Positions 1-64,000 of a stretch of 64,000 bases of DNA are shown here, piece after piece (position 1 is the first letter of the stretch; every line of letters begins with the position of its first letter). Location: positions 160,001 through 224,000 of the forward strand of contig CAWAOD010000009.1 of NCBI GenBank assembly GCA_963783575.1, given 5' to 3'. The DNA is from an uncultured Spirochaetota bacterium (GTDB taxonomy: Bacteria; Spirochaetota; Brevinematia; Brevinematales; JAOACQ01). A program made the position numbers.

Positions 1-3000
1 GGCAGGGACATTACTGCAAAGACGCATATTTGAAAGAATATCAAGCCCTTCAATATAGTCGGCCGCCATTTCTTTTTTTCCGCTTATTACCATCCATCCT
101 GCCCGGAACCCTGGAATCCTGTGAGATTTTGAAAGCCCATTCATTGTAATAAACAGGATTTCACCGGATAATGAAGCCGTAGAAGTATGTGTAGCATCAT
201 CATAAAGTATTCTATCGTATATTTCGTCAGAAAACACAATAAGCTTTTTTTCTACTGCAATATCAACTATTTTTTGAAGTATCTCCACCGGATAGACCGA
301 ACCTGTCGGATTATTAGGATTAATTACCACAATACCTTTTGTTTTATCGCTTATTTTCTTTCTGATATCTTCAATGTCCGGAATCCAGTCCTGGCTCTCG
401 TCACAGAAATAATGAACGGCCTTTCCTCCGGCAAGGTTCGCGGCTCCAGTCCAAAGAGGATAGTCAGGCATCGGTACAAGAATTTCGTCCCCGTTATTAA
501 GAAGACCCTGGAGGGCCAAAACGATAAGCTCGCTTACACCGTTGCCTATATAAATATCGCCGACATCCACACCTTCGATGCCCTTAAGCTGGCAGTACTG
601 CATAATGGCCTTCCTGGCCTGAAAAAGACCCTTTGAATCGCAATATCCTTCTGCGTTTTTAATATTAAGAATTACATCATGGATAATCTCATCGGGAGCG
701 GTAATCCCGAATTGGGGCGGATTCCCGGTATTAAGTTTGATTATGGTTGCCCCTTCCTCTTCAAGACGGTTCGCTTCCTGCAAAACAGGTCCCCTGATAT
801 CATAAAATACATTGTCGAGCTTGTTTGATTTTTTAAATTCCCGAACCATATAAACCCTCAAATTAAATTTTAACAAATTCTATTCATAACAAAGCATAAC
901 TGCCTCTTTAGAGTGGCAGTATCATATTAACAAATCAGCCAAAGGAATTTATAGTATAATTCAGAATACTTATTTTATCAAAATTTATAGATTATCAGGC
1001 TGTTATTAAAAAAATATTTTTAAAAACTATTGACTGATAATCAGTCAATATGTTATAATATATTTGACTGATCGTCAGTCATTATAATTCTAATTAAAGG
1101 AGAAACAAAATGATCTTTTTAGTTTTGTGGTTATTAGGGATACTTTTAGGGATTGTCACAACTATTATGAACCCGTCATTAAGAACAATGCAATCAATTG
1201 CATATAATCTACTTTTCTATCAAATGACAGTTACCGTAACTTTATCTGGATTGATATGCTTTACAGGCCATGTTTTCAGATCGGATTCAATAGCTGATAA
1301 AAACGGTTGGCCCAGAGGCAGCCTGTTTCAAAAGGAGCTTGGTTTTTCACAATTAGGGTGGGCATTCGCCGGGATTCTTTCAATATGGTATAAAAGCACT
1401 TTATGGATTGCAATTATTGTAATTCTTTGTCCAATGTTTATAGGAGCCGAGGTCATTCATATAATGGATATGTTTAAGAACAAAAATCTCAAACCCGGTA
1501 ATCCGCTAATAATTTTTGCGGATTTAATAATTCCCTTAACATTGATCGTCCTATCGGTTTTTGCAAAAATATGGTAGTTTTTCAATAAAAGGAGATTCTT
1601 ATGTCAAGAACAACAAAAGATCCTGAGGAAAGAAGGAATGAAATTCTGGATACGGCTCAAAGGCTTTTTATAGAAAAAGGGTTTATTCAAACTTCGGTTA
1701 GTGAAATTGTAAAGGAAATCGGCGTTGCCCAGGGAACATTCTATTATTATTTCAAAACCAAAGAGGATATCTTAGATGCGATTATTGACCGCTATATTAA
1801 TGAAATTACAGTAGAGGCCGAATCCTGTTTGAATAACCCCGATTGGGATATAAAGCAAAAAATGGAGAATATAATTATTTCAGAAATAAAAATAGTGAGT
1901 AAGAACAATAGTTACCTGCACAGGATTCAATCGGCGGATATTCACACCCGTATGCTGACTGTGATGGTCAAAAAATTGACGCCTGTTTATGCCCGGATCA
2001 TCGAAGAAGGTATTCAATCGGGAATCTGGAAAACAGATTATCCGCAGGAATTCGCGGAATCCATGCTGGTATCATCGCACATTCTTTTTGATCCGGGATT
2101 GTTTCACAGGACAAAAGAGGAGTTTGAAAGGTGTATTTTAGCATGGCGAGATTCGATGGAAAAAACACTTGGTATGGAAAAAGGGTGGATGGATAGCCTT
2201 AAAAATATTTTTTTTCAGATATATAAAAGGCTCTAACATAAAAAAAATAATAAAAGAGGGATCATCTATGGAAGATAGGCATTCTTTACTTGGCAATGAA
2301 AGCATAACCAGGCTCATTGTAAAATTTTCAATCCCGGCGGTCGCAGGGATGACCGTCACCGCACTTTATAACGTTATCGACAGGATATTTGTAGGACGGG
2401 GGGTTGGATCCGACGCCTTATCTGGCGTTGTGCTGACCTTTCCGATTATGATGATCATACTGGGATTTTCGCTTTTAATTTCCGTTGGAACGGCTTCAAT
2501 GGTTTCTATAAAATTAGGTCAGAAAAAGAAAGACGAGGCGGAGGATATTATCGGTAATGCTTTTGCCCTGTCCATGGCATTGGGAATCATCCTGTCGGCG
2601 GTTTGCCTGGTATTTATGAAGCCGGTACTCATTGCTTTTGGCGGTGAAGGAACTCCTCTCCTTTATGCCGAGCAGTTTATGCAGGTAGCGCTTTTTTCGA
2701 TTGTCTTCCAGATGATCGGTTTTACATTGAACGGAGCTATCCGTTCCGAAGGAAACGCGATGATTGCATTATTGACTTTAGTAATAGGGAATGCCATCAA
2801 CCTGATTTTGAACCCATTATTCATATTTGTCCTGCACCTTGGAGTTAGAGGTTCTTCCCTTGCCACACTTATATCCCAGATTGTAACTTCAGCCTGGACA
2901 TTCTTCTATTTTGCAAATAAAAAAAGCCTGCTGCGTCTCAGGATAAGGAACCTCCGGCTCAAACCCATTATCTTGAAGGAAATCCTGTCCATAGGACTTG

Positions 3001-63000: not shown

Positions 63001-64000
63001 ATCAATTCAATTTTCAGATTTGAATCAGTTATAACCCTGATTATGCCTTCAGCAATACCATTAGATGAATAAGGATTGACATAATAAGCCGCTTCTCTGC
63101 AAATCTCATGGAGCGGGGCAATATCGGACACAACAACAGGACAGCCGCAAGCCATTGCTTCAATGGGAGGCAAGCCGAATCCTTCATAAAAAGATGGAAG
63201 GACTAATAGATCCGCAAAATTATATAAATCGATCAGCTTATTATCATCGACAATACCGGTAAATATTACCTGATTTTCAAGATGAAGATTTTTAATTATT
63301 AAATCAATATTATCAAGTCTTGTTATAAAATCTTCCTTCTGTCCCGTAATAATTAATTTATAATTCTTATAATCATTATTTATTTTTTTAAATGCATTAA
63401 GTAAACCTATGATATTTTTATGAGGTTTGACATTTCCCACAAAAAGAATAAATTTTTCATTTTCTTCAAGACATGATCCACTCATAAACCTCATTTTCTC
63501 CTGAAATGAGTATTCTTTTTTCATAAATTTAACTTCAGGCGATCGATATATTATTTTTATCTTACCGATTTGTTTGATGTCCAGATTTAACCGGCCGATA
63601 ATCTCATCTCTTGTAAATTGAGAAATCGCAATAAGTAAATTCGAATTTTTAACAGCGTTTTTAAATAGAAACTTCGCATATAATTTTGCAAGGGGATTTA
63701 GTTTCGACATTTGTGTAATCTGAAAAACATCATGAATTGTTACAATTCTTTTTTTTGCCGGGATTTTAAAAACCGGCGCATTGAATTGCGGAGACCAGAA
63801 AATATCAGCTGGAGGAATTTTTTTAATAAATTCATATTGTTCAATTGGAGAATAAATTTTTGAATTCATTTCAATTACTTCAGCCTGATATTCTGAAAGA
63901 GCTTTTTTGCTGCCGAGGAGAATAACCTCATATTTCCACAATATATAAGGTAAAATAGAGCGAATATAACGTCCGATACCAGACATGCTAATCATTCTGG

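Follow-up and report, generated by a model that had tools for sequence, protein, structure and literature searches.

Introduction

Which enzyme attaches the first sugar to lipid A in a bacterium that lacks the Kdo transferase WaaA is the question raised by the DNA analysed here, a 64-kb stretch of contig CAWAOD010000009.1 (C9), hereafter the window, from a genome of the spirochaete class Brevinematia (GCA_963783575.1; G000). The window lies between the two lipid A gene groups of this contig. None of the 59 ORFs scanned inside it is a lipid A biosynthesis gene, and all parts of the pathway are found elsewhere in G000 (Table 1). The group before the window includes the gene of a TIGR03492 protein (T), an LpxB paralogue that the first-pass annotation had put forward as a candidate substitute for WaaA.

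A four-enzyme lipid A pathway, with LpxA, LpxC, LpxD and LpxB and without LpxH, LpxK and WaaA, has been described for Cyanobacteria and Dictyoglomi (Opiyo et al. 2010, PMC3087551), and cyanobacterial lipid A is reported to carry glucose or galacturonic acid at C6, where Kdo sits elsewhere (PMC4515613). That cyanobacterial LPS is free of Kdo and phosphate has long been known. Our literature search found no paper naming the first-sugar enzyme of cyanobacterial LPS and none on T or on Brevinematia lipid A. A phylum-wide preprint presents Leptospira as the only known LPS-containing spirochaete, and its lipid A and LPS text does not describe a route of the Brevinematia type (10.1101/2025.07.04.663154). 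The four-enzyme route itself is already known; the spirochaete class is a new setting for it and, judged from the genes, gives the spirochaetes an LPS pathway of a second kind.

Lipid A genes of G000

The first-pass annotation had placed lpxA, lpxC and lpxB at C9:225628-229031, and all three score over their NCBIfam cut-offs. The genes for LpxD, late acyltransferases and Lpt export (LptA, B, C, F and G), which it had also ascribed to G000, were located as well. Profile searches run without a filter on the full set of 9,028 six-frame ORFs gave no match to WaaA, LpxK, LpxI or KdsD and only weak or partial matches to KdsA and KdsB, the KdsB-like cytidylyltransferase reaching 72 bits against a cut-off of 255; the reported lack of WaaA, LpxK, KdsA and LpxI is borne out, with the reservation on KdsA just given, and LpxH is likewise absent from G000. 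No LptD was identified: PF04453 matched in none of five genomes, a result that says nothing, since Synechococcus and Bacteroides are missed by this model as well; an LptD candidate of 1065 aa in G000 was set aside, as it has no Pfam match.

Table 1. Coordinates of the window and of the lipid A, acyltransferase and Lpt genes of G000
Feature	Location	Strand	Evidence or content	Position
Window	C9:160001-224000		regulators, methyltransferases, RecQ, two-component systems, murB, rplM/rpsI, mobile elements	between both lipid A gene groups
O-antigen ligase-like gene, with a GT2 gene	C9:146095-147354	-		before window start
ArnT-like gene, frameshifted	C9:152531-154038	+		before window start
T gene (TIGR03492)	C9:154058-155254	+	398 aa	before window start
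late acyltransferase, frameshifted	C9:157720-158672	-	PF03279	before window start
lpxC	C9:225628-226590	-	TIGR00325, 238.9 bits	3' of window
lpxB	C9:227096-228289	-	TIGR00215, 210.2 bits	3' of window
lpxA	C9:228243-229031	-	TIGR01852, 280.8 bits	3' of window
lpxD	C9:339531-340577	-		3' of window
lptF/G	C14:178113-180763
late acyltransferase, intact	C14:192543-193496		PF03279
lptC-lptA	C14:266601-268161
lptB-like	C11:214674-215438

Distribution across the class

T is present in all 43 Brevinematia genomes sampled, as had been proposed (25 over cut-off, with E no higher than 3.5e-22 in every one of the 43), and WaaA is over cut-off in none of them. In the subset of 31, made up of G000 and 30 genomes at least 90% complete, LpxB occurs in 30, and LpxK, KdsA and a second orphan LpxB paralogue, the partner of T (here X), occur in none. 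LpxH and LpxI are missing from all five class genomes checked, and the PF03279 late acyltransferase is matched in all five class genomes searched for it.

The first-pass annotation had extended the four-enzyme route to the whole class. This holds outside the Brevinema-like family (f2, 12 genomes), where LpxD is found in 31/31 genomes and LpxC in 29/31, the two misses being 57% and 82% complete, but fails within f2, where both enzymes are absent from all 12 genomes; second models run on five genomes agree. The combination of lpxA, lpxC, lpxD and lpxB with absence of lpxH, lpxK and waaA is accordingly that of G000 and families f1 and f3-f7, LpxH having been checked in five genomes and LpxA in G000 and a few loci. 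The lower LpxC and LpxD counts given earlier reflect largely family-wide gene loss, not assembly gaps alone. LpxA, LpxB, T, the ligase and LptF/G are retained in f2.

Outside f2 the class shares its gene content with the cyanobacterial pathway, and the Synechococcus elongatus control likewise has T over cut-off. The two differ in that the class has an LpxL-type acyltransferase, for which S. elongatus gives no match, whereas S. elongatus has KdsA and clusters containing X are commonest in Cyanobacteriota. The gene order lpxD-lpxC-fabZ-lpxA-lpxB of the four-enzyme pathway was not seen in the class, where the order is lpxA-lpxB-ruvX-like-lpxC with lpxD and fabZ elsewhere; f2 departs further, as LpxC and LpxD are also missing. 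With the Raetz pathway of Leptospira, Brachyspira, Negativicutes and Halanaerobiales the class has LpxA, C, D and B, a late acyltransferase and Lpt in common, but it is without the LpxK, WaaA and Kds enzymes described there (PMC3087551, PMC5007114).

T and WaaA in other genomes

T and WaaA occur together in none of 201 Spirochaetota genomes. WaaA is present in 88 of the 123 that are LpxC-positive, with T in 0 of those 88, whereas 33 of the 35 LpxC-positive genomes without WaaA carry T. The Kdo-less reading thus stands in this larger sample, and the mutual exclusion of T and WaaA first noted in a smaller one is upheld within the phylum; outside it, where T carriers have LpxC in 46/50 and LpxB in 45/49 genomes and lack WaaA in 41/50, exclusion is broken by nine of the 50, which carry WaaA and KdsA alongside T. 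The T genes of these nine form a single clade (SH-aLRT 99) and may therefore represent one event. LpxK is missing from six of the nine genomes.

The spirochaete T carriers belong to two lineages whose T genes fall in separate clades of the tree. In an LpxC tree (34 rows, quick search) the class lay on the side of most WaaA-positive spirochaetes (SH-aLRT 99); two WaaA-positive spirochaete families fell on the opposite side and the deep nodes are open, and for these reasons we draw no conclusion on the sequence of events. T had no match in plasmid, phage and viral collections, which therefore add no annotated context.

Gene neighbourhood of T

In 13 of 30 class loci T has an O-antigen ligase gene no more than 1.5 kb away, and the neighbours of T differ between class families. 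The genome scan covered the best 80 of 437 relatives and did not extend to the T neighbourhoods of Deinococcus and Cyanobacteria. Of 66 outside loci, 50 have one or more of X, lpxB (11 loci), lpxI (8 loci), an msbA-type gene, lptB, lptF/G and the ligase no farther than 5 kb from T. T is embedded in lpxB-msbA-lpt operons in other phyla; in genome G254 the order is lpxC-fabZ-lpxA-lpxB-X-msbA-lptC-T-lptA-lptB-lptF/G. All eleven long homologues carry a further domain, O-antigen ligase in six and GT2 in five, and the ligase-T fusions form three groups that share no more than 34% identity. PF04932 alone is not known to separate LPS ligases from protein O-glycosylation transferases. A single fusion to a metallophosphoesterase (P0214) was discarded, being UshA-like rather than LpxH-like and without a counterpart in G000.

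Fold and active site of T

The T protein of G000 scores 267.1 bits against a TIGR03492 cut-off of 219.2. It resembles E. coli LpxB (PDB 5W8X) at a profile-profile probability of 99.8% (E 1e-29) and about 20% identity, with the same GT-B fold, and the catalytic Asp, PGSR, phosphate-binding Thr and hydrophobic membrane segment described for LpxB (PMC5785501) have counterparts in T. D111, aligned with catalytic D98 of LpxB, is present in 106/106 T sequences, and LpxB P198-G199-S200-R201 corresponds to P211 (105 of 106), G212 (102), S213 (102) and R214 (99, with K in 7). T302 (98 of 106) corresponds to LpxB T277, which together with PGSR marks the UDP site. In contrast, the ribose-binding E281 of LpxB is aligned with an invariant Gln (Q306), and the E-x-S-G-D motif (E15-x-S17) is replaced by G-E-D. 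The T segment at the position of the LpxB membrane patch keeps conserved hydrophobic and basic columns, but is weak evidence because its hydrophobic moment (0.32) is not distinct from those of the other helices (0.23-0.39). A true LpxB accompanies T in most genomes.

The likeness to WaaA (Aquifex, PDB 2XCI/2XCU; GT-B fold, profile-profile probability 95%, E 3.5e-8) includes E15, invariant in 106/106 T sequences and aligned with the catalytic glutamate of the WaaA SxGE motif, which equals E31 if the PDB chain carries a tag of 21 residues. Unlike WaaA, T lacks PF04413 (0/106 sequences at E 0.1) and its donor site is LpxB-like (UDP); a CMP-Kdo supply is moreover missing in the class, G000 lacking KdsD and having only a weak KdsB-like protein besides the class-wide absence of KdsA.

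The best fold matches are to non-hydrolysing UDP-GlcNAc 2-epimerases (1v4v, Z 24.4, rmsd 4.9, 343 residues aligned), ahead of WaaA (Z 19.2, rmsd 4.7, 318 aligned) and LpxB (Z 17.8), and epimerases are also the top profile matches; some acidic residues align. The G000 protein reaches 20.8 bits with PF02350, short of the 30.6-bit cut-off, T occurs in lipid A gene context, and it carries PGSR in place of the His-Arg-Arg motif of the epimerase active site. LpxB itself has been modelled on 1V4V (PMC5785501), so that this match does not discriminate. Neighbourhood, fusions and active-site residues together tie T to lipid A-core assembly.

Discussion

We propose, at about even odds, that Brevinematia make a Kdo-free LPS without 4'-phosphate in which T adds a sugar at the 6' position of the distal acyl-glucosamine; that T attaches the first sugar in place of Kdo is probable. 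LpxA, LpxC, LpxD and LpxB, whose genes are present, would by family chemistry give an acylated glucosamine disaccharide, to which the LpxL-type enzyme, likewise encoded, would add secondary acyl chains. T may be a membrane-associated, probably inverting GT-B enzyme that moves a sugar from a nucleotide donor, probably a UDP-sugar, to the free 6'-hydroxyl, which would be the position where WaaA places Kdo and the kind of hydroxyl that LpxB uses on lipid X. Judging by neighbourhood and fusions, this sugar, extended by neighbouring GT2/GT4 enzymes, would serve as acceptor for the O-antigen ligase, and the Lpt proteins would export the finished glycolipid. In most lineages T and X occur together and cannot be distinguished; the class has T without X, leaving T as its sole LpxB-like candidate and singling out one enzyme for one assay.

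Against placing T at 6' stand the nine outside genomes that combine it with WaaA and KdsA, the epimerase fold match ahead of WaaA and LpxB, and the invariant Gln at the E281 column; the PF04932 ligase calls, too, may be protein O-glycosylation transferases. Further difficulties are the Deinococcus radiodurans control, which has T over cut-off and no match for LpxC, LpxD, LpxB or WaaA, and families f14 and f27, in which canonical LpxB was not found in 6/9 T carriers.

The claim that T replaces WaaA is also weakened in one respect, namely that LpxK is lost more consistently: it is absent from 77/80 and WaaA from 71/80 of the same genomes, so that the place of LpxK competes with that of WaaA. T might then transfer a sugar such as galacturonic acid to the 4'-hydroxyl, with 6' filled by X, WaaA or another transferase. 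We regard this as unlikely, even though it is favoured by the lack of LpxK in six of the nine genomes with WaaA and T and by the galacturonic acid reported at C4 of the distal glucosamine in Synechococcus lipid A (PMC4515613). The six genomes, all Negativicutes-labelled, have WaaA, KdsA, X and T and no LpxK, and in the three loci where msbA, waaA and kdsB were all seen they are adjacent with no lpxK between; X in these six genomes could, however, itself fill 4'. Three Armatimonadota-labelled genomes have both LpxK and T, and in Brevinematia, without X and WaaA, a 4' role for T would leave 6' without a candidate enzyme.

We consider it quite unlikely that T works at the following step, lengthening a sugar which another enzyme has put in place, or that it glycosylates a different glycolipid exported by Lpt, not necessarily lipid A. 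D. radiodurans, which has LptF/G as well as T, is described as lacking LPS (PMC13721041), some T proteins are fused to GT2 domains, and in Armatimonadota-labelled genomes X-T-msbA forms a second cluster, with the complete Kdo pathway lying some 25 kb away (G226). Yet LpxC accompanies T in 46/50 outside carriers, T sits within lpx/lpt operons, and it is kept in 43/43 class genomes despite changing neighbours; no other class-wide first-sugar candidate came to light, though the search for one was not systematic. The idea that T makes Thermus-type glycolipids was dropped, since the Thermus thermophilus control gives no match to it.

We give little credence to a role of T before or instead of LpxB, either cleaving UDP from UDP-diacylglucosamine to give a phosphate-free acceptor without LpxH or LpxI, or condensing the disaccharide. 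Such a role would suit the lack of LpxH and LpxI in the five class genomes checked, the phosphate-free lipid A of cyanobacteria and the top matches to epimerases, which eliminate UDP. It would also suit 6/10 f14/f27 genomes that have LpxC, X and T and no canonical LpxB, LpxD being present in 4/5 of this type tested. Nevertheless lpxI lies near T in eight outside loci and lpxB in eleven, LpxB is present besides T in 30/31 class genomes, T has the PGSR of LpxB and not the epimerase motif, the 1V4V match is non-discriminating, and the ligase fusion points to a late step. Finally, it is scarcely credible that Brevinematia have an ordinary Kdo-lipid A whose genes were missed because assemblies are incomplete or sequences divergent: fragmentation affects most of the genomes, completeness is 89.9% in G000, the genome search runs a pre-filter, and a short LpxD model missed real f14 lpxD genes that the full-length model found, but WaaA, LpxK and KdsA are jointly missing from 31/31 genomes, including two single-contig genomes 99-100% complete, the same WaaA model matches 88 other spirochaete genomes, and the unfiltered searches of G000 agree.

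The loss in f2 of LpxC and LpxD, two enzymes regarded as indispensable for making lipid A, with LpxA and LpxB kept, puts LpxC as the universal committed step in question and bears on host sensing of a spirochaete frequently listed in fish gut studies. We tentatively raise the possibility, which we hold to be somewhat doubtful, that f2, lacking these two enzymes, exports a lipid A-like anchor that bears O-antigen. LpxA would O-3-acylate UDP-GlcNAc, an f2-specific LpxB would join N-acetylated units, an LpxL-type enzyme would add secondary chains, T the first sugar, and the ligase and Lpt would complete the molecule. If so, the lipid A of f2 would bypass the textbook committed step and, were T the first-sugar transferase that Kdo-free LPS has long been missing, would be made by the smallest lipid A pathway seen.

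Distribution of T and of the Kdo-route genes

All 43 genomes of the class Brevinematia encode T, the LpxB-like TIGR03492 protein (above cut-off in 25), and the lack of Kdo-route genes described in the first-pass annotation holds across the class: WaaA exceeds its cut-off in none of the 43, and LpxK and KdsA are both missing from G000, the genome under study, and from the 30 others that are at least 90% complete (0 of 31 each, the other 12 left out). In the same 31 genomes LpxB is present in 30 and X, a second, unnamed LpxB-like paralogue, in none, while LpxH and LpxI had no match in five class genomes. 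The controls E. coli, Caulobacter and Bacteroides matched as expected, the LpxI model matching Caulobacter only. The class name follows the first-pass annotation and agrees with the names attached by sources to the nearest homologues.

Of 201 Spirochaetota genomes (G000 and 200 that are at least 90% complete), 123 have LpxC, 88 have WaaA and 40 have T. The 88 WaaA-positive genomes all have LpxC and none has T, so that the exclusion between T and WaaA proposed for this phylum is borne out without a single genome holding both; 33 of the 35 genomes with LpxC and no WaaA carry T (all but G099 and G186), and the remaining seven T carriers belong to f2, the Brevinema-like family of the class. As kin genomes are not independent, these carriers represent two lineages, the class and the families f14/f27 outside it, whose T proteins fall in different clades of a quick tree (85 rows, family f7 left out).

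In the available sections of the sources, the four-enzyme lipid A route is known from Cyanobacteria and Dictyoglomi (PMC3087551), the spirochaete ancestor is inferred to have had lpxAB, kdsA, htrB and lptG, and Leptospira is called the only known LPS-containing spirochaete (phylum-wide preprint, 10.1101/2025.07.04.663154). Literature searches, with most subscription journals outside their coverage, returned no paper on TIGR03492 or its product name, none on lpxA and lpxB without lpxC, and no title on the lipid A of Brevinematia. The Kdo-free route in this spirochaete class is a real, new variant, of which a Kdo-free lipid A would be the product.

Gene neighbourhood of T within and outside the class

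Thirteen of 30 class loci, read with 1.5 kb flanks, have an O-antigen ligase gene next to T; most belong to families f2-f5, G012 is a further case of a ligase near T, and in three scanned loci a late acyltransferase is found within 1.5 kb. Outside the class, a GTDB scan gave the best 80 of 437 T relatives ranked by closeness to the G000 protein, a biased sample that came to 66 loci once 12 class-labelled loci and two duplicates were removed. Fifty of the 66 have near T at least one of X (36), an MsbA-type transporter (32), a ligase (16, two of them fused), lptB (13), lptF/G (12), lpxB (11) and lpxI (8), counted in flanks of up to 5 kb, many clipped by contig ends, with profiles partly built from these same loci. 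X, of about 420 aa with an SN[GS]PGE motif and no NCBIfam model of its own, is frequently placed between lpxB and msbA. The order in G254 is bamA-ompH-lpxD, then lpxC-fabZ-lpxA-lpxB-X-msbA-lptC-T-lptA-lptB-lptF/G, and comparison with G221 shows that X and T fill the stretch that holds waaA and the kds genes in the latter. All 11 long T homologues (E 1e-30 or better) are fusions, six to a ligase and five to GT2, and the ligase-T fusions form three groups of at most 34% mutual identity. Several Bacillota loci (L117, L133, L137, L141, L148) have a nucleotidyltransferase gene immediately before T, its product nearest to mannose-1-phosphate guanylyltransferase and below cut-off, possibly a hint at the sugar donor of T.

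Fifty genomes of this set, drawn from the best 80 of 437 relatives, were tested; LpxC was found in 46 of 50, LpxB in 45 of 49 and WaaA in nine of 50, hence the exclusion between T and WaaA is strong, not absolute. In a 39-genome subset that keeps all nine WaaA genomes and omits four without LpxC and seven seemingly redundant ones, KdsA is above cut-off in the same nine, LpxK is present in three, and X in 34 by a profile to which some of these genomes contributed sequences. The T genes of the nine form one clade (SH-aLRT 99); three genomes are Armatimonadota-labelled (WaaA, KdsA and LpxK) and six Negativicutes-labelled (WaaA and KdsA without LpxK). A complete lpx, waaA and kds set is reported for Negativicutes and Halanaerobiales in the part of PMC5007114 available, and for Negativicutes likewise in PMC13249872; the Halanaerobiales-labelled genomes here were chosen for carrying T and have no WaaA. 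Three Armatimonadota-labelled loci (L095, L106, L179) come from genomes that combine a full Kdo pathway with a distinct X-T-msbA cluster including an ArnT-like gene, which suggests a second glycolipid. In Negativicutes-labelled genomes without lpxK (L157, L159, L161, L178), msbA-waaA-kdsB are adjacent and the X-T cluster is accompanied by GmhA/GmhB-like, DegT, GT2, GT9 and PAP2 genes. The S. elongatus control has KdsA above cut-off without WaaA, and LptF/G matches occur in the Thermus, Deinococcus and Thermotoga controls.

Active site of T and the position it may serve

The confidently predicted structure of T (pLDDT 96.3, pTM 0.93) has a GT-B fold, matched best by UDP-GlcNAc 2-epimerases (Z 24.4) and, further down, by a large number of glycosyltransferases, by WaaA (Z 19.2) and by LpxB (Z 17.8). 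Profile comparison ranks LpxB first (99.8%, E 1e-29), ahead of X (99.5%) and WaaA (95%). Of the LpxB residues tabulated in the available part of PMC5785501, T keeps D98 (its D111, 106/106), P198-R201 and T277, whereas the E15-x-S17 motif is not kept and the E281 column holds Gln. An invariant E15 of T aligns with the Glu of the WaaA SxGE motif, taken, assuming a 21-residue tag, as catalytic E31 of that table; X shares this Glu (24/24) and PGSR. Given the LpxB-type residues and the WaaA-aligned Glu, the alignments suggest that T pairs a donor site of the LpxB kind with an acceptor-side Glu of the WaaA kind.

T, a well-supported but unproven candidate transferase, would transfer a sugar onto the Kdo-free lipid A, at a hydroxyl that may be the 6', the position of Kdo. 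Since the class has T and neither X nor WaaA, T is the one candidate for the first sugar, if O-antigen joins lipid A at the usual position, and we hold the chance that it acts at 6' to be about even. That the sugar goes instead to 4', where LpxK would phosphorylate, seems unlikely, with LpxK missing more often than WaaA on its side and, against it, a class that has neither X nor WaaA to serve 6'. Both positions are substituted in the distal glucosamine of Synechococcus lipid A, C4 by galacturonic acid and C6 by glucose, and in Oscillatoria it is C6 that bears galacturonic acid (available part of PMC4515613); PMC4390846 confirms the cyanobacterial chemistry, its accessible text holding no 'lpx'. 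These two substituted positions would match in number the two orphan paralogues T and X, and it is in Cyanobacteriota that clusters with X turn up most often, a lead only.

We regard it as quite unlikely that T works at a later step or on another lipid. The control D. radiodurans has T and LptF/G with no match to LpxC, LpxD, LpxB or WaaA, so T can exist without lipid A; on the other side stand the lpx and lpt genes found around T.

Lineages without LpxB, LpxC or LpxD

Canonical LpxB is missing in six of the nine T carriers of f14/f27, as the first-pass annotation had warned for T carriers outside the class. In these families lpxB adjoins T in G124 and G106 and lies 1.5 kb away in G112, X is present in 10 of 10 genomes, and LpxD in four of five LpxB-less genomes tested. 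Six genomes (G049, G074, G083, G091, G118, G062; loci L069, L071) have LpxC, X and T without canonical LpxB, and in G091 the gene following X is not lpxB. Either these spirochaetes make a monosaccharide anchor or the job of LpxB is done by X or T; as a general reading, T acting before LpxB or in its place looks decidedly improbable, LpxB accompanying T nearly throughout the class.

The lpx set assumed for the whole class stands for LpxB and, outside f2, for LpxD, and fails for LpxC and LpxD in f2 (12 genomes, 1.4-2.3 Mb), whose T proteins cluster with two proteins named Brevinema by their sources (support 100). LpxC was found in none of the 12 at E 0.01, nor in five at E 1 with a profile including five class LpxC proteins, a search without positive control; the LpxD N-terminal domain was found in 0/12 as against 31/31 other class genomes. 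The short LpxD model can miss a real lpxD, as happened in f14; with the full-length model the top match in 5/5 f2 genomes is lpxA itself, at no more than 86 bits versus 305-313 for f14 LpxD. In G001 and G012, lpxA-lpxB-ruvX-like directly joins rsmE with no lpxC between, and the lpxD site upstream of ksgA is vacant in 5/5 f2 genomes, coinciding with rearrangements. That the class-wide absences of Kdo-route genes are an artefact and the class makes ordinary Kdo-lipid A is, despite the missed lpxD of f14, highly improbable.

LpxC is the first committed step, according to the available part of PMC13721041, and the loss of lpxC and lpxD in one family is unexpected. Family f2 retains LpxA (5/5), LpxB (7/7, one above cut-off), the PF03279 enzyme (4/4), LptF/G (3/3), T and the ligase. 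Identity among f2 genomes is 53-57% for LpxA, LpxB and T versus 50-63% for housekeeping neighbours, dN of the three is far below dS wherever dS is computable, and LpxB retains the catalytic Asp and PGSR, with family-specific changes next to the Asp. Either f2 has an N-acetylated anchor, or other enzymes stand in for LpxC and LpxD, or LpxA and LpxB act on another lipid. In L229-L231 the genes ahead of T and the ligase are those of a sugar dehydratase, a DegT aminotransferase and a GT4 enzyme, a combination characteristic of glycan initiation with an amino-deoxy sugar.

Inventory of G000

The G000 assembly has 4.9 Mb in 18 contigs (89.9% complete, 4.9% contaminated). Its lipid A genes flank the window on both sides of contig C9, others lying on further contigs, and none of the 59 ORFs of the window scanned against NCBIfam is a lipid A biosynthesis gene. 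LptC, LptA, an LptB-like ATPase and LptF/G were all found, LptD was not identified, and an O-antigen ligase-like gene lies 6.7 kb from T. When every six-frame ORF was searched unfiltered, using profiles made from fetched loci, there was no WaaA (best score 15.5 bits), LpxK, LpxI or KdsD; the KdsA profile matched a 342-aa protein with a score of 80 bits, and KdsB gave a partial match.

Coordinates of features on G000 contigs (C), in the window and in fetched loci (L)
Feature	Position	Strand	Remark
lpxC-lpxB-lpxA cluster	C9:225628-229031		all three above their cut-offs
lpxD	C9:339531-340577
T gene (TIGR03492)	C9:154058-155254
ArnT-like gene	C9:152531-154038		frameshifted, intact paralogue elsewhere
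late acyltransferase	C9:157720-158672		frameshifted, intact paralogue elsewhere
lptF/G duplicate	C14:176806-178108		frameshifted, intact paralogue elsewhere
IS110-family transposase	window 7923-8933	+	above cut-off
group II intron reverse transcriptase	window 12075-13436	-	above cut-off
PLP-dependent acyltransferase	window 36765-38024	+	Kbl, BioF and serine palmitoyltransferase models about equal, each below cut-off
carboxynorspermidine synthase-like and decarboxylase genes	window 38832-41182	-	alternative polyamine route
ABC transporter	window 49302-51228		in two ORFs
X and relatives	L067:6761-8035, L187:6678-7925		alignment A2
family f2 loci	L054-L059, L219-L223, L228-L231

The frameshifted genes and the split ABC transporter are either assembly indels or pseudogenes.
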